DNA of 57,504 bases from Gammaproteobacteria bacterium (lineage in GTDB: Bacteria; Pseudomonadota; Gammaproteobacteria; Magnimaribacterales; Magnimaribacteraceae), in NCBI GenBank assembly GCA_012965075.1, contig DTSY01000153.1:3728-61231 (forward strand), in the 5' to 3' direction. Under the pieces are notes generated by a model, which was not told the DNA's origin, made no database searches, and saw nothing but the letters and a program-made list of their open reading frames with translations. How positions within the stretch are numbered: position 1 is the first letter of the stretch; every line of letters starts with the position of its first letter. This document shows, one piece after another, positions 1,010-22,919 of this stretch. The position numbers were made by a program, and so were the translations under genes.

Positions 1010-2407
1010 ATGCCCCAAAACCTTTCCTCAAATGAACCGCTTCCCTTCTCTGTAGAAGCTGAAAGAGCTGTATTAGGAGGCATCATGCTGAAAAATGATG
1101 CTTGGGATCTAGTGGCAGGTGTTGTTCTAGAAGAAGACTTCTACAAAAAAGAACATAAATTAATTTTTAAAACTATCAAAAATCTACAGGATCTAGGTAA
1201 ACCTGTAGACCTTATAACAGTACAGGAAGCTCTTGAAGGAAATGGTGATCTACCTGGGCTGGTTAACTTAGGGGGTAAGGGTTATTTAACTCAGCTTGCC
1301 AAAGAGACACCTAGTGTAGCTAATATAGAAAGTTACGCTGAAATAATTAAGCAAAGATCTAATTTAAGAAGATTAATAACTACAGTAGACCAGATAGCCC
1401 AGAATGCAAGAGAGTCAGATTCTTCTGGTAGTGATCAAATTATTGACCATGCTGAAGAAAGCATCTTGAGCTTAAGGGATGATGCTAAAAGATCATCAGG
1501 TCCAAAGGGAATAAGGGAGCTATTGGGACCAGTTTATTCCAATATACAAGAAGCAAACGAGTCAGGAGATTCTCTTGTAGGAGTAAGTACTGGATTTACT
1601 GAAATAGATGAAATTACTCTAGGGTTTCAAAAATCTGATCTAATTATTATTGCTGGAAGACCGTCTATGGGGAAAACAGCCTTAGCATTTAACATAGCTG
1701 AGAATGTAGCAAGACAAACAGATCAAACAGTATTGATCTTTAGTATGGAAATGTCTGCAGAACAAGTAGTAAGAAGGTTTATTTCTAGCATAGCAAATAT
1801 AGATCTACAAAGACTAATGAGAGGGCAACTTCAGGATAATGATTGGGAAGGGATAGATAAAGCTTTGTCCATATTAAGCAGTAAAAAAATTCTTCTTGAT
1901 GATACTCCTGCACTGAGTCCCACAGAATTGAGATCTAGAGCTAGAAGGGTAAAGAGAGAAGACAAGGATTTGGCCATGATCATAGTAGATTATATTGGAC
2001 TAATGCAAGTACACGGTAGGAGCGATAATAGGGTACAAGAAATTAGTGAGATAAGCCGTTCTCTTAAAGCTCTAGCCAAGGAACTAGATGTCCCAATAGT
2101 TGCTATCTCACAGTTAAATAGGGCAGTTGAATCGAGACCTAATAAAAGACCTATATTGGCTGATTTAAGAGACTCTGGAGCTATAGAACAAGATGCGGAT
2201 GTGATTGCTTTCTTATATAGACATGAATACTACGATAGGAATGATTTAGAAAATAAAGGGAAAGCTGAGATTAATATAGCTAAACAAAGGAACGGGCCTA
2301 CTAGAACCACTTCTCTTGCCTTTAGGGACTCAGTAGCTAAATTTGAGAATCTAGCTAGGGAAGAAAGATATCCTCCTCAGTACTATGAAGACAGTGAAGA
2401 TAACTGA
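1010..2407 (+). CDS. dnaB: replicative DNA helicase DnaB
   Basis: 465 aa. It has the N-terminal PFSVEAERAVLGGIM motif, Walker A GRPSMGKTA, Walker B IIVDYIGLM, SQLNR, and RDSGAIEQDADV. No intein-like insertion is present. Confidence 0.95.
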   Translation: MPQNLSSNEPLPFSVEAERAVLGGIMLKNDAWDLVAGVVLEEDFYKKEHKLIFKTIKNLQDLGKPVDLITVQEALEGNGDLPGLVNLGGKGYLTQLAKETPSVANIESYAEIIKQRSNLRRLITTVDQIAQNARESDSSGSDQIIDHAEESILSLRDDAKRSSGPKGIRELLGPVYSNIQEANESGDSLVGVSTGFTEIDEITLGFQKSDLIIIAGRPSMGKTALAFNIAENVARQTDQTVLIFSMEMSAEQVVRRFISSIANIDLQRLMRGQLQDNDWEGIDKALSILSSKKILLDDTPALSPTELRSRARRVKREDKDLAMIIVDYIGLMQVHGRSDNRVQEISEISRSLKALAKELDVPIVAISQLNRAVESRPNKRPILADLRDSGAIEQDADVIAFLYRHEYYDRNDLENKGKAEINIAKQRNGPTRTTSLAFRDSVAKFENLAREERYPPQYYEDSEDN

Positions 2408-2472
2408 TCTATAAATAATTTAATCCATACCTAATAATTATTTACGTTGTGACACAACCTACTTTTTGTTAA

Positions 2473-4170
<1,698 letters not shown>

Positions 4171-5013: not shown

Positions 5014-6312
5014 GTGGCCAAATTAACTATCAAAGATATTTTAGCTTTTGAAGTATTAGATTCCCGAGGAAGTCCTACAATAGCTGCAGAAGTAATACTC
5101 TCAGATAACAACTCTTCAATGGCATATGTACCTTCTGGTGCCTCAACAGGTAAGCACGAAGCTTTAGAATTTAGAGACGGAGATAAGTCTAGATACCACG
5201 GAAGAGGAGTTTCGAAGGCAATCAATTTTATAAAAAATGAATTAAAAGAATCAATCATTGGTTTAGATCCTTTAGACCAGAAGGTTATAGATACTAATTT
5301 ATGTAAAGCCGATGGAACTCATAATAAGAGTGCTCTAGGAGCAAATTCAATTTTAGCTGTTTCTCTAGCTAATTTAAGGGCATCCGCTGTTTCTAGATCT
5401 ATGCCTCTTTATCAATATATACATTCTATAAATAAACAAGTTTCTAAATTGAATAAAGAACCTATTCTTCCTGCGCCTATGTTAAATATTTTGAATGGAG
5501 GAGTTCATGCTGATAATAAGATTGATTTTCAAGAATTCATGATTCAACCTTTAGGATTTAATACTTTTAAATCAGCCTTGCGTTGTGGCGTAGAAATTTT
5601 TTATGAACTTAAAAATTTACTTAAAAGTGAAAATTTAATTACTTCCGTAGGTGACGAAGGGGGTTTCGCACCTCAACTAGCAACAGCTGAGGAAGCAATA
5701 GAGCTTATTCTTAAGGCAATAAAAGCTTCTGGTTATGAAGCTGGCAAGGATGTTTTTGTATGTTTAGACCCTGCTTCTTCAGAGTTTTTCAACGAAAATA
5801 AATATATTCTACAAGGAGCAGATAAGCATCTTAGTCCTGGAGAGATGATTAGTTATCTCAAAACTTTAACCTCAAAATACCCCATTAATTCAATTGAAGA
5901 TGGCTTAGATGAAGATGATTGGGAAGGGTGGAAGTCCTTAACAGAAACCTTGGGTTCAGAAGTGCAATTAGTTGGTGATGACCTCTTTGCTACAAATCCT
6001 GAAAGGATAAAAAGGGGAATAGAAGAAAGTGTAGCAAACTCAGTACTTATTAAAATGAATCAAATAGGAACGATTTCTGAGACTTTGGAAGCAGTAGCTT
6101 TATCTCAAGAAAATGGTTACAAAACTATTATCTCGCATCGCTCAGGTGAAACTGAAGATACTTCTATAGCTGATCTTGCTATCGGTTTGGCTGCTGGACA
6201 AATTAAAACGGGAGCTCCTTCTAGGACTGATAGAGTCTCAAAATATAATCGCTTAATAATTTTGGAAGAGAAATTTAAAATTCCTTTTGTTGGGAAAAAT
6301 GAAGCTTTATAA
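5014..6312 (+). CDS. eno: enolase
   Basis: 432 aa with a GTG start. Motifs are SGASTGKHEALEFRDGD, GDDLFATNP and ISHRSGETEDTSIADLA. Confidence 0.97.
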   Translation: MAKLTIKDILAFEVLDSRGSPTIAAEVILSDNNSSMAYVPSGASTGKHEALEFRDGDKSRYHGRGVSKAINFIKNELKESIIGLDPLDQKVIDTNLCKADGTHNKSALGANSILAVSLANLRASAVSRSMPLYQYIHSINKQVSKLNKEPILPAPMLNILNGGVHADNKIDFQEFMIQPLGFNTFKSALRCGVEIFYELKNLLKSENLITSVGDEGGFAPQLATAEEAIELILKAIKASGYEAGKDVFVCLDPASSEFFNENKYILQGADKHLSPGEMISYLKTLTSKYPINSIEDGLDEDDWEGWKSLTETLGSEVQLVGDDLFATNPERIKRGIEESVANSVLIKMNQIGTISETLEAVALSQENGYKTIISHRSGETEDTSIADLAIGLAAGQIKTGAPSRTDRVSKYNRLIILEEKFKIPFVGKNEAL

Positions 6313-6664
6313 ACTTAAAAAGTTTAATAAGGATGACTATATCTTCTTTCCTTCAGTAATACTTTTATTGGTCTTGCTGATAATGATACAAATTAATATT
6401 TGGTCTGGGGACTATGGGTATTCAAATCTGAAGGATTTAAAGGAAGAGTTTAAAGAAAAGGAACAATTAACTTTAGAACTGGAGAGAAGCAATCTTTTGT
6501 TGGAACAAGAAAAAGAACAATTAAGATCAGAAAGAAATGCCATTGAAGGGTTGGCTAGATATGAATTAGGTTTGATAAAACCAGGTGAGACTTTTTACAA
6601 ATTTCAATCTGAGCTGACTAAAGACAAAGAAATTGATCCTAAAATATCTAATCAAGATCAATGA
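6299..6664 (+). CDS. ftsB: cell division protein FtsB
   Basis: The ORF track opens at TTG 6287; I prefer ATG 6299 (MKLYKLKK...). It has one N-terminal TM segment, then a coiled coil ending ..AIEGLARYELGLIKPGE. The eno-ftsB-ispD order is conserved. It overlaps the eno 3' end. Confidence 0.8.
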   Translation: MKLYKLKKFNKDDYIFFPSVILLLVLLIMIQINIWSGDYGYSNLKDLKEEFKEKEQLTLELERSNLLLEQEKEQLRSERNAIEGLARYELGLIKPGETFYKFQSELTKDKEIDPKISNQDQ

Positions 6665-10195: not shown

Positions 10196-10499
10196 TTTTA
10201 CTTTTTACTTCTCTCCATTCATCAGCGTCTTCAGGAGGGTCTTTTTGTTCAGTAATATTAGGCCATTCCATGCATAGCTCCGCATTTAATTCTATAAATG
10301 GAAGTTGATCTTCTGGAAGCTCATCTTCTGAGTAAATAGCATCTACAGGACATTCAGGTTCACATAAAGCACAGTCAATACATTCATCGGGATTGATTAC
10401 AAGCATGTTAGGTCCCTCATAAAAACAATCCACAGGACAGACTTCAACGCAGTCAGTGAGTTTGCATTTAATACAGGATTCTACAACTATAAAAGCCAT
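10176..10499 (-). CDS. fdxA: 7Fe ferredoxin (FdxA type)
   Basis: [56 protein letters not shown] matches Azotobacter/Pseudomonas-type FdxA (107 aa). The ORF-track start at 10535 adds 12 non-homologous residues. The 3' end overlaps the DUF368 gene by 20 nt, convergently. Confidence 0.85.
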
Positions 10500-10574
10500 A
10501 ACATTATGAAAGGTAGATTTTAGCAATATATGCAATTAACTACTATCTGGACAATAATTTGATTTCTGGTCTAA

Positions 10575-11099
10575 TTGCGCTTTACTCATTTAGAAGGACC
10601 TATTTTGAATCAAGAAAAGTTAGTATCAATCAGTTTTGAATTAGGCGAACTACTTAAGTCAAAAGGCTATTCCTTCACTTGTGCAGAGTCCTGTACTGGT
10701 GGTTGGGTAGGACATTCTCTAACTTCTGTTCCTGGAAGTTCAGAATGGTTTGGATCATCTTTTATTACATATTCCTATGAAGCTAAAACCCAAATTTTGG
10801 GTGTCTCTTCATCTGACTTAGACAATTTTGGTGCGGTAAGTGAAGAAATTGTAGGACAAATGGTCTCGGGTGCCTTAAGTAAATCAGGTGCGAATGTTGG
10901 AGTAGCTATAAGTGGAATTGCAGGACCTACAGGAGGCACCGAAACTAAACCTGTCGGAACAGTTTGTTTTGCTTGGAAAGTAAATGATCAAGAAATAGTA
11001 ACTTCTACAGAACATTTCTCAGGGGAAAGGAATGATGTCAGATATTTCTCCGTTGAAAGAGCTTTATTGGGTACAATTAAGTTATTAAAGAACACTTAA
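10575..11099 (+). CDS. pncC: CinA-family nicotinamide-nucleotide amidohydrolase (PncC domain only)
   Basis: It has SFTCAESCTGGWV and ISGIAGPTGG..TKPVGTV motifs and sits directly upstream of recA, as in many Gammaproteobacteria. The start is uncertain: either TTG 10575 or TTG 10605. Confidence 0.8.
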   Translation: MRFTHLEGPILNQEKLVSISFELGELLKSKGYSFTCAESCTGGWVGHSLTSVPGSSEWFGSSFITYSYEAKTQILGVSSSDLDNFGAVSEEIVGQMVSGALSKSGANVGVAISGIAGPTGGTETKPVGTVCFAWKVNDQEIVTSTEHFSGERNDVRYFSVERALLGTIKLLKNT

Positions 11100-11103
11100 A
11101 TAA

Positions 11104-11123
11104 TACTGTTTATTTATACAGTA
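11104..11123. promoter_or_regulatory. LexA (SOS) box in the recA promoter
   Basis: TACTGTTTATTTATACAGTA has both consensus arms TACTG / CAGTA intact as CTGT-N8-ACAG. A TATAAT -10 hexamer lies at 11129-11134, an AGGAGG RBS at 11152-11157, and the recA ATG at 11163. Confidence 0.78.
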
Positions 11124-11162
11124 TTATGTATAATTGCCCTGTAAACTCTTCAGGAGGTAGGC

Positions 11163-12182
11163 ATGGCGCAGAAAAAGGTAACAAATATCAAGGAAATAGA
11201 TAAAAGCAAGCAATTAGAAGCTGCACTAGGCCAGATTGAACGTCAATTTGGATCGGGTACGGTCATGCGTATGGGGGATAAGAAGCTAGAGAAGATACCA
11301 GCTATACCTACCGGGTCACTTGGATTAGATTTAGCTTTAGGGATAGGCGGCTTGCCCAGAGGAAGAGTTGTTGAAATATACGGTCCTGAATCTTCAGGAA
11401 AAACAACTTTGACTTTAGAGGTCATTGCTCAATGTCAAAAACTAGGTGGAACAGCAGCATTTATTGATGCTGAACATGCTTTAGATCCCATCTACGCAGA
11501 GAAGCTTGGTGTTAATGTTGAAGAGTTATTAATTTCACAACCTGATACTGGAGAACAGGCGTTAGAAGTAGCTGACATAATGGTCCACTCTGGAGGAATT
11601 GATATATTGGTAATCGATTCGGTTGCTGCTTTGGTTCCCAAAGCGGAGATAGAAGGAGAAATGGGCGATTCTCATATTGGTTTACAAGCTCGGTTGATGT
11701 CACAAGCTTTGAGAAAAATTACGGGTAATGTTAAGAGATCAAATACTTTAGTTATCTTTATCAATCAGATTAGATACAAAATAGGGGTTATGTTTGGAAG
11801 TCCAGAAACTACTTCTGGAGGCAATGCCCTTAAATTCTATGCCTCCGTCCGATTAGATATTAGAAGGATTGGTACTGTTAAAGAAGGAGATGAGGTTGTA
11901 GGAAATGAAACTAGAGTTAAAGTTGTAAAAAATAAATGTGCTCCACCCTTTAAACAGGCTGAATTTCAAATTATTTACAACAAAGGTATCAACAGGTTAG
12001 GTGAGCTTTTAGACAGGGGGTCTGATTTAGGCATCTTAGAAAAATCTGGATCTTGGTACAGCTTGGAAGGTGAGAAGATAGGACAAGGTAAAGCAAATGC
12101 CGCGGAATTTTTACAAGAAAACCCTAAGATCGCTGAAAAAATAGAAAAGCAGATACTAGAAACTTTAGCTGAAAAAGAATAA
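11163..12182 (+). CDS. recA: recombinase RecA
   Basis: 339 aa. Motifs are [16 protein letters not shown], Walker [30 protein letters not shown] and [35 protein letters not shown]. Confidence 0.98.
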
Positions 12183-12202
12183 TTTCTCTTCCTCAGATAA
12201 AT

Positions 12203-13474
12203 TTATTGGATTTTATTTAGGACTTCATCTGGGATGAGTGAGACTATTTTATCTTCACCTCTCATCTTGAATTCAACCTTATTCTCTCTAAAAGATTTTT
12301 CTCCGATGATAATCATTTGAGGTATTCCAATTAATTCCATATCAGAAAATTTTACCCCAGCACTTTGATCCCTATCATCCCAAAGAACTTCATGTCCTTG
12401 CTCTTTTAAGGAGGTGTATATTTGGTTACAAAGATTTTTAAGGTTTTTCTCACCTTTAGGGTTTATTTCAACTAAGGCAGTTGTGTAGGGACTAATTTCT
12501 TTAGACCAGATTATTCCTTTATCATCATGATTTTGTTCGATAGCAGCAGCAACTATTCTTGATATACCTATGCCATAACAGCCCATTTCAGGGTAAATAT
12601 TTCCATTCTCAGATTGGACGGTAAGTTTCATACTTTCAGAGTATTTTCTTCCTAGTTTGAAGATATGACCTACTTCAATACCTCTTTTTAATTTTAACTT
12701 ACCCTTTCCATCAGGACTATCTTGTCCTTCCAGGCTTCGCGGATCCTGGTCAGATTTTGATTCTATTAACAATTCAGCATTAATTGCATAATCACTTTTG
12801 TCGCTAAAAGCTAGTAGATCTTCACCAGAATCTGCTAATACATGAAATTCTTCTGAATCAGCCCCCCCTATAGCTCCACTGTCTGCTTTTACTATTCTGT
12901 AATCTAAACCAAGAGAATTAAAAATCCTTACGTACGCATCCCTCATACTTTGATAGCTGTCATCCATTTGTTGTTCTGAAAGATCAAAAGAATAGGCATC
13001 TTTCATGATGAACTCTCTAGATCTCATAACACCAAACCTAGGTCGAATTTCATCTCTAAATTTAGTCTGTATTTGGTAGAAGATAACAGGAAGCTGTTTG
13101 TGGCTTCTTATTTCATTCCTACACAAGTCTGTAATTATTTCTTCGTGGGTAGGGCCTAAGCAGAATTCTCTATCGTGTCTATCTTCAAATATTAATAATT
13201 CTTTACCGTATTGTTGCCACCTTCCTGATTCTTTCCACAATTCTCCAGGTTGAACCATTGGCATCAAGATTTCTTGCGCTCCAGATTTTTCCATTTCTCT
13301 TCTAACAATATTTTCTACCTTTCTAAGGACTTTTACTCCTAGAGGCAACCAGTTATATATCCCCGATGCTACCTGTCTTATTAACCCTGCCTTTAACATT
13401 AATTTATGGCTTATAGTTTCTGCGTCAGAAGGGTTTTCTCTTTGAGTTGCTAAGAGTAAATTACTAGTTTTCAT
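12203..13474 (-). CDS. proS: proline--tRNA ligase, bacterial type, lacking the INS editing domain
   Basis: 423 aa. It is collinear with E. coli ProRS through motifs 1-2 (FYQIQTKFRDEIRPRFGVMRSREFIMKDAYSF), then again from SPDG.G.L..KRGIEVGHIF to the C-terminal anticodon-binding domain. The roughly 150-180 aa INS block is replaced by a short linker at aa ~231-255. Confidence 0.92.
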   Translation of the reverse strand: MKTSNLLLATQRENPSDAETISHKLMLKAGLIRQVASGIYNWLPLGVKVLRKVENIVRREMEKSGAQEILMPMVQPGELWKESGRWQQYGKELLIFEDRHDREFCLGPTHEEIITDLCRNEIRSHKQLPVIFYQIQTKFRDEIRPRFGVMRSREFIMKDAYSFDLSEQQMDDSYQSMRDAYVRIFNSLGLDYRIVKADSGAIGGADSEEFHVLADSGEDLLAFSDKSDYAINAELLIESKSDQDPRSLEGQDSPDGKGKLKLKRGIEVGHIFKLGRKYSESMKLTVQSENGNIYPEMGCYGIGISRIVAAAIEQNHDDKGIIWSKEISPYTTALVEINPKGEKNLKNLCNQIYTSLKEQGHEVLWDDRDQSAGVKFSDMELIGIPQMIIIGEKSFRENKVEFKMRGEDKIVSLIPDEVLNKIQ

Positions 13475-13571
13475 GGTTAATTTTTACTTGCTCAATATTA
13501 ACATTTAGTAAAAGAGTAAACGAGATAATAAGTAAATAAGCTTATGTTGGTATAATTCTCACTCAATTAGT

Positions 13572-13868
13572 ATGCCCACTTACGTATTTAAGGAAAAAGG
13601 TAAAAGAAAGTTGATTGAAGTTCAGATGAAGATATCTGAACTTGATTCTTTTAAGTTAAACAATCCTAAACTTAAACAGATTCCAACAGCTCCATCTTTT
13701 AGGCTGAAAGGGACAGGTTGGTATGAAACTGACTTCAAAACTGGAAAAAGGAAAAACCTAGCTAAAAATGATGAAGATAAGCAAGGTAATTTAAGTAAAA
13801 CTAAGACTGAGAACAAAATAAAGAAAGATAAGGTTAAAAAGAAAGAAGAGAAATCAGAAAGTTCTTAA
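13572..13868 (+). CDS. FmdB-like small protein without zinc-ribbon cysteines; K/E-rich tail
   Basis: MPTYVF....APSFRLKGTGWYETDFKTGKRKNL resembles gammaproteobacterial FmdB/CxxC_CxxC_SSSS proteins (MPIYEY.C..CG...CP.CG...SAP.F.LKGSGWYETDF). There is no Cys anywhere in the 98 aa. Confidence 0.55.
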   Translation: MPTYVFKEKGKRKLIEVQMKISELDSFKLNNPKLKQIPTAPSFRLKGTGWYETDFKTGKRKNLAKNDEDKQGNLSKTKTENKIKKDKVKKKEEKSESS

Positions 13869-13880
13869 ACGGTGCAGATT

Positions 13881-15653
13881 ATGAAGAATATAGAAACAAT
13901 AAAATGCGGATCTATAACCAAGAAGAAACTTAACTCAGTTGTTGAGGTTTGTGGCTGGATACACAGAAGAAGGGATCATGGAGGAGTCATTTTCTTTGAT
14001 TTAAGAGATGAGTCTGGTTTAGTCCAAGTGGTCTGCAACCCAGAAGAAAAAGATACTTTTGCACTGGCAGAGACTTGTAGGAGTGAATACGTAATTTCAG
14101 TTGTAGGAAAAGTGAGGGAAAGACCAGAAGGAACAGTTAACCTAGAGTTAGATACAGGGGAAGTAGAGGTAGTTGGATCCTTTCTTAAAATTCTCAACCC
14201 CTCGTTACCTATACCTTTCCAATTAGATGAGCACGCTTCAGTAGGTGAAGAAACTAGACTTAAATACAGGTTCTTAGATTTAAGAAGAGAAGAAATGCAG
14301 AAAAATATTAGATTAAGATCTAAAACTTCTAAATGCGTTAGAGATTATCTTGAAACTAATGAATTTATTGAAATTGAGACTCCTTTGCTTACTAAGGCAA
14401 CTCCAGAAGGAGCAAGGGACTATCTTGTACCCAGTAGAACATTTCCAGGTTCATTTTTTGCGCTCCCTCAGTCTCCACAGTTATTTAAACAAACTTTAAT
14501 GGCTTCAGGGTTTCAACGGTACTACCAATTCGCTCGATGCTTTAGGGATGAAGATCTGCGCTCTGATAGGCAACCAGAATTTACTCAGATAGATTTAGAG
14601 TGCTCTTTTGTAACCTCGCAAAATATTAAGGACTTAGTGACTGATTTATTAAAAAAAGTCTTCTTTGAAGTTCTAAATATTAAGCTGGGAAAATTTCCTA
14701 CTATGACTTATGAAGATGCAGTTGCCAAATTCGGTACTGACAAACCTGATTTAAGAAACCCTCTTGAGCTAGAAGATGTATCAGAATTGTTTGTAAGTTC
14801 TGAATTTAAAGTTTTTAACGACCCAGCAAATTCTAAAGATTCAAAAATAGCATGTTTAAGAGTTCCAGGAGGAGAAGTTCTAACTAGGAAACAAATAGAT
14901 GATTACACAGAATTTGTATCAAATTTTGGAGCTAAGGGATTAGCTTATATAAGAGTAGAAGACCCAGGGAAGGGTAAGGAAGGCTTACATTCACCTATTC
15001 TTAAGTTTTTGGAAGATGATATTGTAAAAACTTTATTGCAAAGGGTAGGAGCTCAGAAAGGAGATATTATCTTCTTTGGAGCTGGACCTAACAAGATAGT
15101 TAATGACTCTTTAGCTGCCTTGAGAATTGAGTTAGGAAAAAATCTCAATTTATTAACTAGTGATTGGGCTCCTTGTTGGATAACTGATTTTCCCATGTTT
15201 GAACTTAATGCAAGTGGAGAAATCACTCCTCTACATCATCCCTTCACATCACCTAAATGTAGCAAGGAGGAGCTTATAAAAGATCCTCTAAGTTGCTTAT
15301 CAGATGCATATGATATTGTCCTTAATGGTCTAGAACTAGGAGGAGGATCAGTGCGTATTCATGACCACGAAATGTTGTCTTCTGTATTAGAAGTCCTGGG
15401 AATAAATAAGAAGGAAGGGGAGGAAAAATTCGGATTCTTATTATCGGCTCTACAACATGGTTGTCCTCCTCATGCTGGATTAGCAATCGGTTTTGATCGT
15501 TTAATTATGCTTATGACTTCGTCTGAATCTATAAGAGATGTAATAGCATTCCCTAAAACACAGACAGCTTCTTGTTTGATGACGGATGCACCCGGACAGG
15601 CTTCATCAGACCAGTTAGATGAGTTAAAAATTATTGTTGATAAGGATGATTAG
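13881..15653 (+). CDS. aspS: aspartate--tRNA ligase
   Basis: About 590 aa. It has an N-terminal OB domain ([31 protein letters not shown]), [34 protein letters not shown] and [10 protein letters not shown] prefer ATG 13881 over GTG 13872. Confidence 0.96.
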
Positions 15654-15655
15654 CT

Positions 15656-16402
15656 ATGGCTGGACATTCTAAATGGGCAAATATTAAGCACAGGAAGGGT
15701 AGGCAAGATGCTAAAAGGGGAAAAATATTTTCCCGTCTAATTAGAGAACTAACAGTAGCTTCCAGGCTAGGAGGGCCAGTTGCAGAAGACAACCCTAGGC
15801 TAAGAACTGCCTTAGATAAAGCTTTATCTGCAAACATGCCAAAAGATACGATTGAAAGGGCTATACAAAGGGGATCTGGATCAGCAGAAGGAGACGACCT
15901 GGAAGAAACTACCTTTGAAGGTTATGGTCCAGGGGGTGTCGCCATAATTGTTGAATCTATGACTGATAACAACAATAGGACAGTAGCTGAAGTAAGGCAT
16001 GCCTTTTCCAAAGCAGGAGGAAACCTAGGGACAGATGGTTCTGTTTCATATCTTTTTATCAAAAAAGGATTGATACAATTAAGTAACAACACAAGCTTAG
16101 AACAGGTACTGGAAGTTGCAATAGAAGCTGGAGCTGAAGATATAGAAGAGAACTCAGATCAGTCAATAACCATTTCTACCTTACCCGAAGATTTTGATCC
16201 AGTTAAGAAAGCATTAATTGATAAAGAAATAGAAACGCTAGAGTCTGAAATTAGTTTAGTTCCGGAGACCAGTGTTTCTACAGACTTAGAAACTTCGATA
16301 AAGATTTATAAGCTGTTAGAAGCTTTGGAAGATTTAGACGACACTCAAAATGTACATTCAAATGCAGATTTTCCTGAGGAGATCGTTGAGCATCTAGATT
16401 AG
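15656..16402 (+). CDS. yebC: YebC/PmpR-family transcriptional regulator
   Basis: 248 aa. MAGHSKWANIKHRKGRQDAKRGKIFSRLIRE is the family-signature N-terminus. It follows the aspS-yebC order. Confidence 0.93.
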   Translation: MAGHSKWANIKHRKGRQDAKRGKIFSRLIRELTVASRLGGPVAEDNPRLRTALDKALSANMPKDTIERAIQRGSGSAEGDDLEETTFEGYGPGGVAIIVESMTDNNNRTVAEVRHAFSKAGGNLGTDGSVSYLFIKKGLIQLSNNTSLEQVLEVAIEAGAEDIEENSDQSITISTLPEDFDPVKKALIDKEIETLESEISLVPETSVSTDLETSIKIYKLLEALEDLDDTQNVHSNADFPEEIVEHLD

Positions 16403-16404
16403 CC

Positions 16405-16815
16405 ATGACAAATTCAAGGAATAAAGGGGCATCTTTTGAAAGAGAAATTGGAAATCTATTAACTGCAGATCTTGGCTTGAATAACAATGTAAGAAGAATT
16501 CTAGAACAAACCAGGGAAAAGCACTTGCCCGATTTAATGCTAGGACGATGGTACATAGAATGTAAAAGATATGGTACAGGTGCTGAACCACTGGAAGCTT
16601 GGTGGCAGCAAGTTCTTGATGCTACTCGTGAAGAAGGAATTCCAGCACTTGTATATAAGTTTGATAGAAGACCCATCAAAGTAAGGGTTCCCCTCGGAGC
16701 CATTAATCCTGAGTTAAATATTAATGCTCCTTATACTGCAGATCTACTATGGGAAGATTTTATCTTTCTTCTTAAAAATCTTTATAAGGAAGATATACAA
16801 GACCATGATTTATAA
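16405..16815 (+). CDS. PD-(D/E)XK nuclease-fold protein with Hjc-like (Holliday-junction-resolvase-like) motifs
   Basis: 136 aa. It carries NKGASFEREIGNLL (Glu helix), hydrophobic-PDL (Asp) and YIECK (E-x-K), in the order and spacing seen in archaeal Hjc. No RuvC (RNase-H-like) motifs are present. It is packed 2 nt after yebC and 2 nt before ybgC. Confidence 0.55.
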   Translation: MTNSRNKGASFEREIGNLLTADLGLNNNVRRILEQTREKHLPDLMLGRWYIECKRYGTGAEPLEAWWQQVLDATREEGIPALVYKFDRRPIKVRVPLGAINPELNINAPYTADLLWEDFIFLLKNLYKEDIQDHDL

Positions 16816-16817
16816 AG

Positions 16818-17216
16818 ATGCATATTTTGCCAATTAAAGTTTATTACGAAGATACTGATGCTCAGGGGGTAGTTTATTACGCAAACTACTTAAAGTTTTT
16901 TGAGAGAGCAAGGACAGAATATCTTCGAGAGATAGGCTATGAGCAGAAGAACTTGATGGAACAAGGAGCTATTTTTGTTGTCAGAGAAGTATCTATAGAA
17001 TTCAAAAAACCAGCCTACCTAGACCAGCAAATTGAAGTACATACTCGAATCATAAAAGCAGGAAAAGTTAGCTTTGATTTTACTCAAGAAGTTTTTACTG
17101 ATGAAGGTGACTTATTGTGTGGTGGGATTGTTAAATGCGGTTGTCTTGGTTTAAAAAATTTTAAACCCAAAGCTCTTCCTAGCAAGTTATACCAAGGTAT
17201 GAAATCATTGCTATAA
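16818..17216 (+). CDS. ybgC: Tol-Pal-associated acyl-CoA thioesterase (4HBT fold)
   Basis: 132 aa. VYYEDTDAQGVVYYANYLKFFERARTEYLR is the YbgC/4HBT signature. It lies directly upstream of tolQ. Confidence 0.88.
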   Translation: MHILPIKVYYEDTDAQGVVYYANYLKFFERARTEYLREIGYEQKNLMEQGAIFVVREVSIEFKKPAYLDQQIEVHTRIIKAGKVSFDFTQEVFTDEGDLLCGGIVKCGCLGLKNFKPKALPSKLYQGMKSLL

Positions 17217-17221
17217 GAACT

Positions 17222-17890
17222 ATGTCATTTTCAATCATCGATCTTATTCTCAATGCTAGTGTGGTAGTTCAGCTGGTTATTTTTTTACTTTTGTTAGCTT
17301 CAATTTTCTCTTGGATGGTTATTTTTGAAAGGTGGGTATATTTAAGTAAATCAAACCAAGAATTAGTTAGTTTTGAAGATCTATTCTGGTCAGATGCAGG
17401 CCTAGAGGCTGTTTTTAAGAAAGGCCAAGAAGAAAACTATGTAGCCATTGGAGCTGAATGTATTTTTAGATCGGGATATCAAGAATACAGGAATATTAAT
17501 GACCAAGATTTAGAGCCAGAAACAGTGTTAGAAGGAGCAGAAAGAGCTATGAGAATATCTCTTTCAAGGGAACAAGCTGCGCTGGAGAAACATTTACCCT
17601 TTTTAGCTACTGTAGCTTCTGCATCACCCTATGTTGGTTTATTTGGAACAGTTTGGGGAATTATGAATTCTTTTAGAGGGTTGGCAGAAACTAACCAAGC
17701 TACCTTATCAACAGTCGCTCCAGGTATCTCAGAAGCCTTAATAGCCACAGCGATAGGTCTTTTTGCAGCAATACCAGCTTTAATTGCATACAACAGATAC
17801 ACAACTTCAGTTGAAACACTTCTTTCAAGTTTTGAAAATTTTATGGATGAATTCTCTATTGTTCTGCACAGAGACCTTTACAAGAAATGA
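17222..17890 (+). CDS. tolQ: Tol-Pal system protein TolQ
   Basis: 222 aa and three TM segments. It has the MotA/TolQ/ExbB motif LATVASASPYVGLFGTVWGIM..F...TVAPGISEALIATAIGLFAAIPA. Confidence 0.93.
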   Translation: MSFSIIDLILNASVVVQLVIFLLLLASIFSWMVIFERWVYLSKSNQELVSFEDLFWSDAGLEAVFKKGQEENYVAIGAECIFRSGYQEYRNINDQDLEPETVLEGAERAMRISLSREQAALEKHLPFLATVASASPYVGLFGTVWGIMNSFRGLAETNQATLSTVAPGISEALIATAIGLFAAIPALIAYNRYTTSVETLLSSFENFMDEFSIVLHRDLYKK

Positions 17891-18312
17891 TTTCAAGAAG
17901 GAGAAGAAGATCATTACTTTCTGATATAAATGTAGTTCCGTATATAGATGTTATGTTAGTGCTTCTGGTTGTATTCATGATAGCGGCACCTTTAATGGTT
18001 CAAGGCGTCTTAGTAAATCTCCCTGAGACTCTATCTGAGCCATTACCAAGAGAAAAAAACGATCCTTTAATCATTTCTATTAAGTCAGATGGCGTATTTT
18101 TTCTTGAAACTCAAGCTACTAGGAACACACCGCTTAATTTAGAAGATCTTTCAGTTCAGGTAGACAAAATTCTTAAAGCAAACCCTTATTTACAGGTAGT
18201 AGTAAGAGGAGATGGGAATGTTAAATACCAGAAAGTCATGGAGTTAATGTCCGTGCTACAAGCTTCAGGTGCTGAGGATGTCGGTTTAATAACCCAACCC
18301 CCATCTTCGTAA
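17887..18312 (+). CDS. tolR: Tol-Pal system protein TolR
   Basis: 141 aa. The LSDINVVPYIDVMLVLLVVFMI N-terminal TM segment has the conserved Asp. It overlaps tolQ by 4 nt. Confidence 0.9.
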   Translation: MISRRRRRSLLSDINVVPYIDVMLVLLVVFMIAAPLMVQGVLVNLPETLSEPLPREKNDPLIISIKSDGVFFLETQATRNTPLNLEDLSVQVDKILKANPYLQVVVRGDGNVKYQKVMELMSVLQASGAEDVGLITQPPSS

Positions 18313-18315
18313 AAC

Positions 18316-18927
18316 ATGCAAAATTACCTTTCAGGGTTCTTTGTTTCTCTCTTTCTGCATTTAGGGTTAGTTTTATCTTTCGCCAACTTCTTTCAAATAG
18401 ATAATCTTTACTCACTTAACAAAGTTGAACCAATGCCCGCTTATCTTGTGTTTGAAAAACCTCAAGTTATTACAAAGAAAAAAAATATTAAGAAGGTTAA
18501 AGAATTGATACAAGAAGAACTAATAATTGACCCTGCAGTCATAGAAACTGCCAATGCAAAAGCAGAGATAGAAACTGTAAAAGTGGAAAAGGACTTGTTG
18601 TTGAAACAAATATTGGGTAAAGAGGTTAAAGGTTCTGTTGAGGAAATCTCTTATTATTCAAATCTTATTAGAGATCAAGTAATAATAAATTGGAAACAAC
18701 CAAGTTCTGCAAAAAAAGGAATGTCAGCTGAAATACTCATAACACTAGTTCCCACTGGAGAAATTGTTCAAGTAAAGCTTACCAAGACCAGTGGAAACCA
18801 AGCTTTTGATGGTTCTGCCCTTAATGCTGTTCAAAAGGTATCCAAATTTGAAGGCCTAGATATGGGTAGGAGGTTATTTGATAATAATTTTAGAAAGTTC
18901 ACTTTAGTATTTAATCCTGAAAATTAG
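18316..18927 (+). CDS. tolA: Tol-Pal system protein TolA (short form)
   Basis: 203 aa. It has an N-terminal TM anchor, a short K/E-rich linker, and a TolA/TonB-type C-terminal domain (...INWKQPSS...ILITLVPTGEIVQVKLTKTSGNQAFDGSALNAVQKV). Its position is between tolR and tolB. Confidence 0.75.
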   Translation: MQNYLSGFFVSLFLHLGLVLSFANFFQIDNLYSLNKVEPMPAYLVFEKPQVITKKKNIKKVKELIQEELIIDPAVIETANAKAEIETVKVEKDLLLKQILGKEVKGSVEEISYYSNLIRDQVIINWKQPSSAKKGMSAEILITLVPTGEIVQVKLTKTSGNQAFDGSALNAVQKVSKFEGLDMGRRLFDNNFRKFTLVFNPEN

Positions 18928-18931
18928 ACCT

Positions 18932-20230
18932 ATGATCTATAGAATTTCGACACTTTTATTTCTTATTTTCAGCTCCTTTTTGACATCAGAATTAAGAATA
19001 GAAATAACTGAAGGAATAAAAGATCCGATTCGTATAGCAATAGTACCAATAGTCTGGAATCTTGAAAATCCACCAAGAAAGTATCTGCATGAAATTATAT
19101 CTTCTGATTTAGAGTCCTTTGGGGAATTCGAGTCATTATCACCAAAAGAAATGTTAAGTCTTCCAAAAACTGATAAAGAATTATTTTATAGGGACTGGAA
19201 ACTTTTAGACGTTGATTATTTAGTTTTAGGATCAGCTTCACAAGGAGAAGTGAAAGGGGAAGTAGTAGTGAATTTCTCTCTATTTAATGTCACTAGGGAA
19301 AGGTTAATGAAACGATCTATAAGTACAGGTACTACCTTTTATTTAAATGCTTTGGCTCATGTCATCAGTGACAGAATATATAATGAAATCAATGGTTTAC
19401 CAGGAATATTTTCAACGAAAATTTCCTATATAAATAAAAATAATTCTTCTGATGAAAAATACTTTCTTAGAGTTGCTGACATAGATGGCAGAAATGATTC
19501 AATTATTTTTTCTTCTACTGAGCCCCTTATGTCTCCTGATTGGTCTTCTGATGGAAGACGTTTGGCTTATGTTTCCTTTGAAGAAGGTACTTCAAGAATA
19601 TTTATCCAAGAGATCTACACAGGAAAAAGAAAAAGTTTAAAACTGGAGAAAGGAATTAATAGTTCACCTAACTGGTCTCCTTCAGACAGATATTTAGCTG
19701 CTGTCCTTTCCAAAGGAGATAATCCAGATATTTATAGATACGATTTGGAAAAAGATTCATGGAAACAATTAACAAATCATTTTGGAATTGATACTGAACC
19801 CGATTGGTCGCCTGATGGAAAGAAGATAATTTTTACATCCAATCGAAGTGGTACACCTCAAATTTATGAAATGACTATTTCAAATGGAAAGATTAGACGA
19901 AAAACTTTTGAAGGAACTTACAATGCAAGGGCTAGATACACCCCAGATGGAAGGAGTTTTGTATTTGTGCACAGAAGAGATGAGCTATTCCATATAGCTG
20001 TCCAGAGCCTAAGAACTGCTAAGCTACAAATTTTAACTGATACTAGACTTGATGAATCTCCTACTATTTCTCCTAACGGGAAGGTAATCATTTATGCGAC
20101 TAAAGAGAAGGAAAAAGATATTCTTGCTGGAATATCAATAGATGGAAAAACAAGATTTACCTTACCCACTAGCTCAGGTGGAGTAAGGGAACCCAACTGG
20201 TCCCCTTTATTAGTTTCCACAAGCAACTAA
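18932..20230 (+). CDS. tolB: Tol-Pal system beta-propeller protein TolB
   Basis: 432 aa with a signal peptide. It shows repeated PDWSPDG / PNWSP propeller-blade motifs. Confidence 0.93.
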   Translation: MIYRISTLLFLIFSSFLTSELRIEITEGIKDPIRIAIVPIVWNLENPPRKYLHEIISSDLESFGEFESLSPKEMLSLPKTDKELFYRDWKLLDVDYLVLGSASQGEVKGEVVVNFSLFNVTRERLMKRSISTGTTFYLNALAHVISDRIYNEINGLPGIFSTKISYINKNNSSDEKYFLRVADIDGRNDSIIFSSTEPLMSPDWSSDGRRLAYVSFEEGTSRIFIQEIYTGKRKSLKLEKGINSSPNWSPSDRYLAAVLSKGDNPDIYRYDLEKDSWKQLTNHFGIDTEPDWSPDGKKIIFTSNRSGTPQIYEMTISNGKIRRKTFEGTYNARARYTPDGRSFVFVHRRDELFHIAVQSLRTAKLQILTDTRLDESPTISPNGKVIIYATKEKEKDILAGISIDGKTRFTLPTSSGGVREPNWSPLLVSTSN

Positions 20231-20304
20231 TCCCAAAAAATGTAGTCAAATTCCAAGAGGTTATTTTAAATAAAAGAAAGTATAATTATTCAAAGGAGTT
20301 AAGT

Positions 20305-20772
20305 ATGAGTTTATTTGATCAGTTTTTAATAATAGCAGCCATAATTTGTTCTTTCAGTGGATGTGCAGCAGTTTCAATGGATCGCGCAGTTGAAGCAGAG
20401 ACAGTTTCTGCTGTTTCAGAATCTGAATACTCAGACTCTGCTAGCCAAGTGGAAGGAACAATATATTTTGAATATGATAAATACAATCTAAGTGCTTCTG
20501 CTGTATCTGATATTCGTGCTCTTGCAAATTCAATTAAATCAAGTTCAAGTAAGGTCCGAATAGAAGGCCACTGTGACGAAAGAGGTACTAGAGAATATAA
20601 CCTAGCTTTAGGGGAAAAGAGGGCCAATGCAGTTTCCGAGTTGCTTCAAGTTAACGGGGTTTCATCCAGTAGTATTACAACGGTTAGTTACGGAGAAGAA
20701 AAGCCAGTTACTTACGGTTCTAACGAATCTTCTTGGACTAAAAATAGAAGAGCTGTAGTTAAAGTATTGTAA
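20305..20772 (+). CDS. pal: peptidoglycan-associated lipoprotein Pal
   Basis: 155 aa. It has a lipobox (FSGC) and an OmpA-like domain: IYFEYDKYNL...RIEGHCDERGTREYNLALGEKRANAV...NRRAV. Confidence 0.92.
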   Translation: MSLFDQFLIIAAIICSFSGCAAVSMDRAVEAETVSAVSESEYSDSASQVEGTIYFEYDKYNLSASAVSDIRALANSIKSSSSKVRIEGHCDERGTREYNLALGEKRANAVSELLQVNGVSSSSITTVSYGEEKPVTYGSNESSWTKNRRAVVKVL

Positions 20773-20784
20773 ATTTAACCTGAT

Positions 20785-21459
20785 TTGAAAAAATCACTTT
20801 TTTTATTTTTTTTATTTATTTTAGCTTTTCCGCTAAGATTTTTTTCTGAGGAAGAAGAATCATTAGATCTAATTTATCTAAAAATAAGGGCTCTAGAGCA
20901 AGAGATAGCTACTCTCAGAAACTTGATTGAAGAAAATACCTATTTGATAGAACGCTATCAGGAACTTCAACAACAAAGATATCTGGATTTAGACAAAAGG
21001 TTACATAGTCTTCTTTCAGGAGAACTCGAAGAATTAAATGAGCAATCCTTAAATCTCAATGATTTAAACTCAACTGAAGAGATTGATTTATACAAAGAAG
21101 CTTTAGAGTTGTTTGAAGTCTCAAGATATGCTGAAGCCATAGAAGTTTTCCGCGACTTAATAATTTCTTTTCCAGAAGGATCTTATTCTGCTGATGCTTA
21201 TTTTTGGTCTGGCGAACTTTATTTAGCCCAAGAACAATTAGAAGATGCGAGAGAACATTACCTAGTAGTTGCAGAAAAGTTTAAAGATCATGACAGGGTT
21301 GCCGATTGTCTATATAAGCTTGGAGTGATTGAGAAAGTTTTACTGAATAATGAGGCAGCTAATTCTTATTTTTCCAGACTTATTTCTGAATATCCTGACA
21401 CAGGAGCAGCAGAATTAGCAAAAAAATCTATGGAAACTTCGATTCAGGAGTCGAATTAA
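20785..21459 (+). CDS. cpoB: cell division coordinator CpoB (YbgF)
   Basis: 224 aa with a TTG start and a signal peptide. A coiled-coil N-domain is followed by C-terminal TPR repeats (..YKEALELFEVSRYAEAIEVF...). It is the last gene of the tol-pal cluster. Confidence 0.8.
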   Translation: MKKSLFLFFLFILAFPLRFFSEEEESLDLIYLKIRALEQEIATLRNLIEENTYLIERYQELQQQRYLDLDKRLHSLLSGELEELNEQSLNLNDLNSTEEIDLYKEALELFEVSRYAEAIEVFRDLIISFPEGSYSADAYFWSGELYLAQEQLEDAREHYLVVAEKFKDHDRVADCLYKLGVIEKVLLNNEAANSYFSRLISEYPDTGAAELAKKSMETSIQESN

Positions 21460-21491
21460 CTTGCCTAAACATTTAATATACGCCTTTCTTT

Positions 21492-21568
21492 GGGCCGTTA
21501 GCTCAGTTTGGTAGAGCAGTTCCCTTTTAAGGAATTGGTCCGGCGTTCGAGTCGCCGACGGCCCACCA
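21492..21568 (+). tRNA. tRNA-Lys (anticodon UUU)
   Basis: A full cloverleaf was folded by hand: acceptor GGGCCGT/ACGGCCC, D stem GCTC/GAGC, anticodon stem GTTCC/GGAAT with loop CTTTTAA, T stem CGGCG/CGCCG with loop TTCGAGT, discriminator A and an encoded CCA. Confidence 0.92.
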
Positions 21569-21575
21569 TCAAAAA

Positions 21576-21938
21576 ATGAAGTATTTTTTAATTCTTATTG
21601 GAGGTGCTACAGGGGCTCTATGTAGAGTTTTAATTTCTGAAGTAATTGAAAGAGCACAATTTCTCTTTTTCCCTCTAGGAATTTTTTCAGTAAATATCTT
21701 AGGGTGCTTCCTACTGGGATTACTAATTAATCTAATTGGTCCAAAATATGAAGAAATCTATGAACCTCTTTTATTAATGGGTTTCCTAGGAGCTTTTACT
21801 ACCTTTTCTGCTTTCTCAAAAGAAACTTTTCAACTGATAGAACAAGGTAATTGGTTGGCTGTTATGAGTTATATTGTTTTTACTGTAATAGGATGTTTAT
21901 TGGCTACTTGGATTGGTATGCAGATAACCAACAATTAA
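21576..21938 (+). CDS. crcB: fluoride ion channel CrcB/FluC
   Basis: 120 aa and four TM segments. Motifs are GGATGALCR, NILGCFLLG and GFLGAFTTFSAFS. It starts 7 nt after the tRNA 3' end. Confidence 0.85.
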   Translation: MKYFLILIGGATGALCRVLISEVIERAQFLFFPLGIFSVNILGCFLLGLLINLIGPKYEEIYEPLLLMGFLGAFTTFSAFSKETFQLIEQGNWLAVMSYIVFTVIGCLLATWIGMQITNN

Positions 21939-22522
21939 GATTTATCATTTTTTATTCTCATTCCCTTGGTATCTCTTAGGATTTGCCTGTAACTGTATCC
22001 TTTCTGTGTTTCAGAACTGAGCAAAGTAGATGCTCTTTTTCTAAGCCAGGTGATACCTTTTTCCGGATTTTCTTTTGCCAACTGTCTTATGGTGTCAATG
22101 ATTCTTTCTTTTTTGATAGCTATATTCATACTAGAAGTCTTGGCTTCCATTTTATTGAAATTTACCTCAGATGCAGAAGGAATATATCCCTTTATGTTGG
22201 CCACCCCTAAGGCATCCATCATTAACATTGTGTTATAGACGATATTACGTAACGAAGAATCTTTTTCCATCTCTTCTAGTACCAATTTAGCTCTAAAAAT
22301 AATATGTGCAGCCAATCTCAAATCTTCTGAAATAAGTTCATCATCTAACATAGGTAAAATATCATCCCAATGAGTAGAAAATCCGGCAGAGGCTATTATT
22401 TCAGCTGCAGATGCAGCTAGGTCTTGAATATTCCTTTTAGGATCTAAAGTTTCAATGAATTCTTGTAGTTCTTTTTGAGAAATTTCTAACTTAAAGGTGG
22501 TATCTTTATTGTTCTTAGCCAT
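21935..22522 (-). CDS. hypothetical protein; predicted all-helical and soluble, with no recognisable family
   Basis: This is a 195-aa ORF with an ATG start. It is long for an AT-rich sequence and has coding-like composition. I recognise no motif. It converges on crcB with a 4-nt overlap. Confidence 0.55.
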   Translation of the reverse strand: MAKNNKDTTFKLEISQKELQEFIETLDPKRNIQDLAASAAEIIASAGFSTHWDDILPMLDDELISEDLRLAAHIIFRAKLVLEEMEKDSSLRNIVYNTMLMMDALGVANIKGYIPSASEVNFNKMEAKTSSMNIAIKKERIIDTIRQLAKENPEKGITWLRKRASTLLSSETQKGYSYRQILRDTKGMRIKNDKS

Positions 22523-22574: not shown

Positions 22575-22919
22575 ATGTATTTGGTTGTCAAAACAATAAT
22601 TACCGTAATAATAATCGTAGCTATTTCAGAAATAGCTAGAAGATCAAGTTTTATAGCAGGCATATTAGCTTCTATACCTCTAACTTCAGCTTTGGCAATT
22701 ACTTGGCTTTATTTTGATACAAAAGAAGTAGACACGGTCGTTAATCTTTCTAACTCAATACTTTTATTAATTCCTCCTTCCTTAACATTTTTTGTTGTTT
22801 TGCCCTTAGCACTAAAAAGATTAGATTTCATATACTCTTTTCTTATCTCAATTGTTGCCACAGTTTTGGTTTACTGGTTATATATTGCTTTACTTTCTCG
22901 TTTTGGTATTCGTTTATAG
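22575..22919 (+). CDS. small integral membrane protein (DUF3147-like)
   Basis: 114 aa with four hydrophobic segments. The family assignment is by overall resemblance only. Confidence 0.5.
   Translation: MYLVVKTIITVIIIVAISEIARRSSFIAGILASIPLTSALAITWLYFDTKEVDTVVNLSNSILLLIPPSLTFFVVLPLALKRLDFIYSFLISIVATVLVYWLYIALLSRFGIRL

Follow-up and report, generated by a model that had tools for sequence, protein, structure and literature searches.

We analyzed a 57,504-nucleotide stretch of contig DTSY01000153.1 (the window) from a member of SAR86 (Magnimaribacterales) and found that an open reading frame (ORF) between yebC and ybgC, here called gene X, encodes a small protein resembling the archaeal Holliday junction resolvase Hjc. 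SAR86 bacteria are free-living and are among the most abundant bacteria of the surface ocean. Judging from its sequence and predicted structure, protein X is very likely an active Hjc-like nuclease, and gene X is probably a non-orthologous replacement of ruvC in situ, in a lineage that lost RuvAB too. The family, fold, catalytic residues, synteny, selection and phage relatives of X were observed directly in our analysis, and the genome-wide absence of RuvABC was taken from a published table. Gene X is located as follows.

16405 to 16815, + strand: gene X, 136-residue PD-(D/E)XK nuclease by prediction, Hjc-like, candidate Holliday junction resolvase; ATG start at 16405, stop codon ending at 16815

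Protein X was matched by the Pfam family PF24608 (PDDEXK_15, 'Phage putative PDDEXK endonuclease') over residues 3-97, with a score of 38.5 bits (curated gathering cutoff, 27 bits) and an E-value of 1.4e-9. The same family was matched by 66 of 66 aligned relatives, with a best E-value of 4.6e-19. When 1.84 billion representative proteins were searched exhaustively, 452 clusters were retrieved at E≤1e-3, with typical lengths of 120-180 residues. In the alignment of 66 PF24608 family members, in which identity reached down to 29%, K7, G8, E12, R31, Q35, E52 and K54 were invariant, and R5, R13, L33, D43, W66, W67, Q69, P80 and R88 were conserved in at least 90% of the sequences. In PHROGs, X fell into phrog_244, which is labelled 'RusA-like Holliday junction resolvase' (E-value 2.4e-13). 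This label describes function and not homology, because RusA has a different fold and no RusA Pfam match was obtained. SAR86 X proteins are publicly named 'hypothetical protein'; in a single case, UniProt automatically assigned the name 'Holliday junction resolvase'.

Several other family assignments were tried and rejected. No Pfam match was found between X and RuvC (PF02075, RNase H-like), in agreement with the preliminary description of this DNA, which had seen no RuvC-type RNase H-like catalytic tetrad in the protein. RecU (PF03838) matched none of the 66 members at E≤1, and no RecU chain was present among the top 50 Foldseek matches; RusA (PF05866) gave no Pfam match to X or to the 66 members. 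Pfam matches to NucS, Vsr, MutH and UPF0102 were likewise absent among the 66 members, and the anti-phage defence nuclease models of PADLOC returned 0 families at E≤1. A scan of X against NCBIfam found no family, and a single-sequence search against PDB sequences gave a chance match only. Among the 66 relatives, four matched the Hjc family PF01870 (best E-value 2.4e-4) and two matched the Mrr restriction-nuclease catalytic domain (E-value 2.2e-6).

The AlphaFold2 model of X had a predicted local distance difference test score (pLDDT) of 92 and a predicted template modelling score (pTM) of 0.87. It contained helices at residues 4-23 and 64-74 and β-strands at residues 44-46, 49-56, 79-86 and 92-96. 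X showed the α-β-β-β-α-β core and the E...D...E-x-K signature that characterize the PD-(D/E)XK superfamily. When the model was compared with the PDB by Foldseek, ranks 1-19 were occupied exclusively by archaeal Hjc/Hje structures, with probabilities of 0.75-1.00, E-values of 1.6e-3 to 0.1 and template modelling (TM) scores of 0.45-0.6, and unrelated folds followed beyond rank 19. RecU, T7 endonuclease I and Vsr were not among the top 50 PDB matches. Among predicted viral structures, the best matches to X reached a TM score of 0.8, and several of these were named Holliday junction resolvase.

Profile comparisons pointed to the same relationship. A search of PDB sequences with the family profile placed six Hjc/Hje sequences just under significance (E-values 0.2-1.5), with the K-G-x3-E-R, D and E-x-K motifs in register. 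An Hjc profile was then built from verified PF01870 proteins of Thermococcales, and hhalign aligned the X family with it over 88 columns at 92.6% probability and an E-value of 4.4e-7. In this register, E12, D43 and E52-x-K54 of X corresponded to E9, D33 and E46-x-K48 of Hjc, and IPALVYKF of X lay opposite IPVLAVKF. In Hjc from Pyrococcus furiosus, catalysis depends on E9, R10, R25, D33, E46 and K48, and the dimer on V24, V35, F68 and F72 (PMC10140301). The six catalytic residues corresponded to E12, R13, R31, D43, E52 and K54 of X, which were conserved in 66, 61, 66, 62, 66 and 66 of the 66 sequences, respectively. At the dimer position V35, the X family carried I, V, M or L and was thus partly hydrophobic. 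The elements of the predicted active site are listed below.

16423 to 16443, + strand: K7-G8-x3-E12-R13 motif in helix 1, corresponding to Hjc K4-G5-x3-E9-R10 (catalytic Glu and Arg); R13 in 61 of 66 sequences, K7, G8 and E12 invariant
16495 to 16497, + strand: R31, corresponding to Hjc R25 in the hhalign register; 66 of 66
16531 to 16533, + strand: D43 (the P-D of PD-(D/E)XK), GAT codon, corresponding to Hjc D33; D in 62 of 66
16558 to 16566, + strand: E52-C53-K54 (E-x-K), codons GAA TGT AAA, corresponding to Hjc E46-V47-K48; E and K in 66 of 66

By sequence, X is therefore Hjc-like at its predicted active site, yet it lies outside PF01870. The preliminary description had called it an Hjc-like PD-(D/E)XK protein from four peptide blocks, NKGASFEREIGNLL, LPDLML, WYIECK and IPALVYKFDRRPIKVRVPL, all of which we found in the translation. 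Its motifs, its fold in Foldseek and the hhalign result upheld that view, whereas Pfam placed the protein in a phage family instead of PF01870. The catalytic E, D and E-K residues were indeed retained among homologues, and the structure and profile searches yielded Hjc/Hje as the best structures, with no match to Vsr or to a PADLOC defence model.

We also examined the genomic position of gene X. The order in the window was recA, a ProS-like synthetase on the - strand, a 98-residue ORF, aspS, yebC, X, ybgC, tolQ, tolR, tolA, tolB, pal, cpoB and tRNA-Lys; its portion from aspS to the tRNA, already proposed earlier, was borne out by Pfam, translations, synteny and the location of the tRNA. The main neighbours are as follows.

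11163 to 12182, + strand: recA, from its translation; 4 kb upstream of gene X, conserved in SAR86 loci
13872 to 15653, + strand: aspS, from its translation; upstream of yebC as in E. coli, conserved synteny
15656 to 16402, + strand: yebC (TACO1/YebC family; PF20772 and PF01709); stop codon 2 nt before gene X
16818 to 17216, + strand: ybgC (4HBT thioesterase; PF03061/PF13279), first gene of the tol-pal cluster; ATG 2 nt past gene X
17222 to 21459, + strand: tolQ-tolR-tolA-tolB-pal-cpoB, from translations and conserved synteny; CpoB with tetratricopeptide repeat and TolA_bind_tri domains (Pfam)
21492 to 21568: tRNA-Lys, after cpoB

The 2-nt gaps on both sides of the 136-residue ORF, reported previously, agreed with the coordinates (16402/16405 and 16815/16818). 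Two ORFs antisense to this region (16278-16703 and 16394-16591, both on the - strand) were rejected as genes, being unconserved: just 22 of the 81 copies stayed open for at least 100 codons. A promoter or terminator inside the cluster that would isolate gene X was also rejected, as matches within 13400-21700 did not exceed the shuffled expectation. Because of these two results, we read gene X as one of the inner genes of a compact cluster whose members share its strand. The window translations revealed no partner methylase or antitoxin gene adjoining it.

The E. coli K-12 annotation runs aspS-nudB-yebC-ruvC and continues shortly afterwards with ruvA-ruvB. The YebC protein of the window was 51% identical to that of E. 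coli. YebC and RuvC are encoded in one operon in about half of RuvC-containing bacteria, and a STRING analysis placed YebC, YbgC, TolB and TolQ at the top of the genomic neighbours of RuvA, RuvB and RuvC; after YebC, the strongest associations were those with YbgC, TolB, TolQ and TolR (PMC3403352). The claim that X occupies the place expected for ruvC-ruvA-ruvB was thus confirmed by the E. coli order and by these neighbours. RuvA and RuvB are missing from less than 2% of bacteria, mostly small-genome parasites (PMC3403352). When E. coli RuvA, RuvB and RuvC were used as tblastn queries at E≤0.01, no match was found in the 57.5-kb window or within 10 kb of X in 80 SAR86 genomes (1.47 Mb in total). 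In Table S1 of Ramfelt et al. 2024 (PMC11582366), RuvA_N, RuvA_C, RuvB_C and RuvC were absent from the closed genome of strain HIMB1674 and also from nearly all of the hundreds of SAR86 genomes tabulated. RecF, RecO, RecR and YqgF/RuvX were present in that table, and RadA, RecN, MutS domain I and the MutL C-terminal domain were absent (PMC11582366). The HIMB1674 paper made no mention of a resolvase or of Holliday junctions, and its supplements made none of RecG, RecQ, RecB, RecJ or PriA (PMC11582366). YbaB, ClpB, RF3, LolA/LolD, the Ffh M domain and FtsY were also scored absent for the closed SAR86 genome (PMC11582366, Table S1); either the SAR86 core is unusually reduced, or some markers were missed by the thresholds of the hidden Markov models (HMMs).

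To describe the conservation of the arrangement, one genome per GTDB species was scanned, which returned 80 loci, all from SAR86/Magnimaribacterales and including the closed HIMB1674 chromosome CP151794.1, with X at 62-98% identity. The order recA, proS (- strand), small ORF, aspS, yebC, X, ybgC, tolQRAB, pal and cpoB was common to all 80 loci, which excludes a chance arrangement. As evident from the survey, the yebC-X-ybgC order noted in the window is kept across SAR86; ybgC was conserved downstream of X in 79 of the 80. In one locus (L039, from the SAR86 single-amplified genome AH-779-I09), a 3.2-kb insertion (10412-13614) separated X from ybgC, and X still directly followed yebC. By eye, two ORFs of this insertion resembled a thiamine-diphosphate enzyme (551 residues) and an aldehyde dehydrogenase (478 residues). 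A distant metagenomic homologue (57% identity) was likewise found in the order aspS-yebC-X-ybgC-tolQ. One SAR86 locus with recA...yebC-X-ybgC-tol, in which X was 86% identical, was carried by PAWD01000035.1 (L007), a contig titled 'MAG: Thaumarchaeota archaeon SAT137', where MAG is a metagenome-assembled genome; it looks like a bacterial contig mis-binned into an archaeal MAG.

X was intact in 81 of 81 copies, each with an ATG start and a length of 135-143 residues. The median identity to the window protein was 75.6% for X, compared with 79.8% for RecA, 66.6% for YebC, 60.1% for TolQ, 57.6% for AspS and 55.3% for YbgC; X surpassed YebC, AspS and the Tol proteins in conservation, and RecA alone was higher. 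The pairwise ratio of nonsynonymous to synonymous substitution rates (dN/dS) was about 0.17 for X, 0.18 for YebC, 0.26-0.27 for YbgC and TolQ and 0.03 for RecA, these being rough values with dS near saturation. On this sequence evidence, X is inherited vertically across the order under purifying selection. The displacement of RuvC with loss of RuvAB, which the preliminary description had raised as a possibility, was thus supported by the slot, by the absences in Table S1 (PMC11582366), by this inheritance and by the selection on X.

The relatives of X outside SAR86 whose gene context was examined were all in phage genomes, mostly in recombination or replication modules. In particular, a 55%-identical relative adjoined genes for a VapE-type primase and a DUF3799 protein; a 47%-identical relative was found in a temperate phage with an integrase, ERF, YqaJ exonuclease, primase-helicase, RecA-dependent nuclease and terminase; and a 42%-identical relative lay among short unannotated ORFs. 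Homologues were also present in cultured phages. In Roseobacter phage CRP-406, the gene stood beside a PD-(D/E)XK exonuclease-like gene and genes for a single-stranded DNA-binding protein and a primase/helicase. In the lambdoid Pseudomonas phage MPK9, it followed O, P, NinB and a Ref-like gene and preceded the lysis genes, that is, in a nin-like region. Lambdoid phages carry rap/ninG or rusA in this region.

IMG/VR contributed 44 further loci of X homologues. Fourteen of them (L095-L108) were 58-62% identical to X and had no yebC or ybgC nearby. The contig of one (L102) was clearly of phage origin, with genes for an endolysin, a virion protein, a tail fibre and an ejection protein. This phage also encoded a 593-residue protein (1432-3213) in which a CHASE2 sensor is combined with an adenylate/guanylate cyclase domain, and a 265-residue protein with a curlin repeat, both unusual as phage cargo. 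In a neighbour-joining tree (without support values), the SAR86 X genes formed one clade, and the sister and deeper relatives were all viral. In the same unsupported tree, a phage group (L096/L104-L107) was nested inside the SAR86 clade. Because all examined relatives outside SAR86 lay in phage genomes, X looks like a domesticated phage gene. The simplest reading of the tree, held tentatively, is a single transfer from a phage to SAR86 in the ancestor of the order, possibly with later recapture of the host gene by phages, perhaps phages of SAR86.

These observations suggest the following model. The SAR86 ancestor would have taken X from a phage, and X would now stand where ruvC-ruvA-ruvB used to be. 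Because RecA (encoded in the window) and RecFOR are retained, SAR86 should still make four-way junctions, which these proteins would create. X would bind such a junction, most likely as a dimer, and a metal site formed by E12, D43, E52 and K54, with the help of R13 and R31, would nick two opposing strands to give nicked products that could be ligated. Because RuvAB is gone, X would have to act alone, as a stand-alone resolvase in the manner of phage resolvases and RusA, and branch migration would either occur spontaneously or depend on a different motor, for example RecG. In this model, the specificity of X for junctions, its dimerization and its role in the cell are inferred. For the wider picture we put the chances at about even: a free-living, abundant order would lack the whole RuvABC resolvasome and resolve its junctions with one domesticated Hjc-type phage enzyme that needs no RuvAB motor, inserted exactly at ruvC and keeping the yebC-linked expression context, and phages may have recaptured the gene.

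Several findings weigh against this model. The Foldseek E-values were modest (best 1.6e-3, with TM scores of 0.45-0.6), and X itself gave no match to PF01870 at E≤1. The Hjc dimer contacts V24, F68 and F72 lay opposite K/R, A/S and variable residues, respectively, so that three of the four dimer positions were not conserved as hydrophobic. A bacterial Hjc-like UPF0102 protein had no nuclease activity in vitro (PMC10140301), and a resemblance to Hjc does not guarantee function for this reason. Our literature search on PDDEXK_15, PF24608 and phrog_244 returned two incidental phrog mentions only, and no characterized PF24608 enzyme was found in it. In the phage contig L102, the X homologue (6001-6420) lay between a virion structural protein gene and tail-fibre-like genes and not in a recombination module. 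Additionally, the genome-wide absence of RuvABC refers to CheckM HMM markers from one paper (PMC11582366); Ffh and FtsY were scored absent in the same table, possibly as threshold artefacts, and YqgF/RuvX is present in SAR86 (PMC11582366, Table S1).

Four other explanations were weighed against the replacement of RuvC by X, and they are taken here in descending order of weight. X might be a broad structure-specific debranching nuclease acting on reversed forks, D-loops, flaps and Y-junctions, with true junctions handled mainly by dissolution or RecG. We consider this unlikely, although it has more in its favour than the others: the family is of phage origin, viral resolvases are described as typically more promiscuous than bacterial ones (PMC3864405), the homologue among virion genes in L102 would fit the clearing of branches before packaging, and RuvAB, which gives RuvC its junction specificity, is absent. 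However, the closest structures were the junction-specific Hjc/Hje and not flap or fork nucleases, and X lies exactly in the ruvC slot, where it is constrained like housekeeping genes. It is improbable that X acts as a PD-(D/E)XK nuclease in an unrelated process, for example as a restriction or defence nuclease, a toxin, or a nickase compensating for lost MutS and MutL; elsewhere, mismatch nicking is performed by NucS/EndoMS. In favour of this explanation, PD-(D/E)XK folds are put to many uses, the Mrr catalytic domain was matched by two of the 66 family members (E-value 2.2e-6), and the MutS and MutL markers are absent from SAR86 (PMC11582366). In contrast, PADLOC gave no match, Pfam gave no match to NucS, Vsr or MutH in the 66 members, X is a single 136-residue domain with no recognition domain, and no methylase or antitoxin gene adjoins it. 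Moreover, its fixed single-copy place in a housekeeping operon across the order is unlike the variable defence islands.

The remaining two explanations were judged very improbable. A non-cutting X that instead binds DNA, serves in regulation or cooperates with YebC or Tol-Pal would be in line with its translational packing between yebC and ybgC and with the UPF0102 Hjc-like protein that bound DNA without nuclease activity (PMC10140301), but the catalytic residues are invariant or nearly so in SAR86 and phage members, which is unexpected for a non-catalytic protein. Alternatively, divergent RuvABC copies could have escaped the marker HMMs, and X would be an accessory phage-derived nuclease inserted by yebC by chance. 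The absent scores of Ffh and FtsY, surprising for a free-living bacterium, would speak for such escape. Against it, four independent markers were lacking in the closed genome as well as in hundreds of SAR86 genomes, and E. coli RuvA, RuvB and RuvC matched nothing in the 1.47 Mb around the canonical site. RuvB is, furthermore, among the most conserved bacterial proteins. The last three of the four explanations are disfavoured because of the fixed housekeeping position, vertical inheritance, strong constraint and invariant catalytic residues of X.

We also compared X with known resolvases and related proteins. The archaeal Hjc/Hje set (PF01870; PDB entries 1GEF, 1HH1, 1OB8, 2WCZ and 2EO0) provided the best and only convincing structural matches. 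Like X, these proteins have a PD-(D/E)XK core, a length of about 120-140 residues, an N-terminal K-G-x3-E-R helix, the D and E-x-K motifs and a following hydrophobic strand. Some differences were present: the C-terminal third (about residues 100-136 of X) differs, the dimer contacts are unconserved in X, and the X family has conserved positions of its own (W66-W67-x-Q69 and R5/Q35/P80/R88). X is also bacterial or phage-borne, whereas Hjc/Hje are archaeal. UPF0102/YraN proteins of bacteria are, like X, small and distantly related to Hjc, but they have no equivalents of Hjc E9, R10 and R25 (PMC10140301), all three of which the X family keeps. RecU of Firmicutes and Mollicutes resembles X as a PD-(D/E)XK resolvase that stands in for RuvC across a lineage (PMC3403352). 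The RecU lineages keep RuvAB, with recU far from ruvAB (PMC3403352), whereas SAR86 lost RuvAB and carries X where ruvC used to be. The lambdoid phage and prophage resolvases RusA and Rap/NinG share a phage origin with X, as seen in the nin-like region of MPK9, and X is likewise expected to act without RuvAB. E. coli RusA, which is not a PD-(D/E)XK enzyme, is assisted by RecG in suppressing ruv mutants.

Cases in which an unrelated resolvase takes over from RuvC are already known, RecU in Firmicutes being one example. What is new here is that the replacing enzyme comes from an uncharacterized phage family with a predicted Hjc-type chemistry, that the replacement took place in situ between yebC and ybgC, and that RuvAB was lost too, in a free-living and very abundant lineage. 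RuvAB is otherwise present in more than 98% of sequenced bacteria, the exceptions being mostly small-genome parasites (PMC3403352). The preliminary description had supposed that the arrangement would be undescribed for this class, and our literature search on SAR86 with ruvC or Holliday junction and on its repair genes found no description of the X family or of a ruvCAB displacement. If X is the sole junction resolvase, it would be the second lineage-wide PD-(D/E)XK replacement of RuvC after RecU, and one without RuvAB; it would also give a first cellular function to an uncharacterized Pfam family and clearly exemplify how a phage gene is domesticated while a genome is being streamlined. The question bears on how recombination, which shapes marine bacterial population structure, works in SAR86. 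The idea is directly testable, as strain HIMB1674 is cultured and has a closed genome and X is small and confidently predicted.

We also made some minor observations on the surrounding genes. A cinA-family gene (10575-11099, + strand) lies directly upstream of recA, which is the ordinary cinA-recA pairing. The ProS-like class II aminoacyl-tRNA synthetase (12203-13474, - strand) has 423 residues with core and anticodon-binding domains and seems to have no editing insertion domain; E. coli ProS has about 570 residues. Between proS and aspS lies the lysine-rich 98-residue ORF (13572-13868, + strand), which had no Pfam match and was found in 74 of 80 SAR86 loci at a median identity of 49%; an 'fmdB' label for it was dropped as unsupported by Pfam. 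After tRNA-Lys and crcB, two ORFs had no Pfam match, one of 195 residues (21935-22522, - strand) and one of 114 residues (22575-22919, + strand), the latter a small membrane protein by the look of its sequence.

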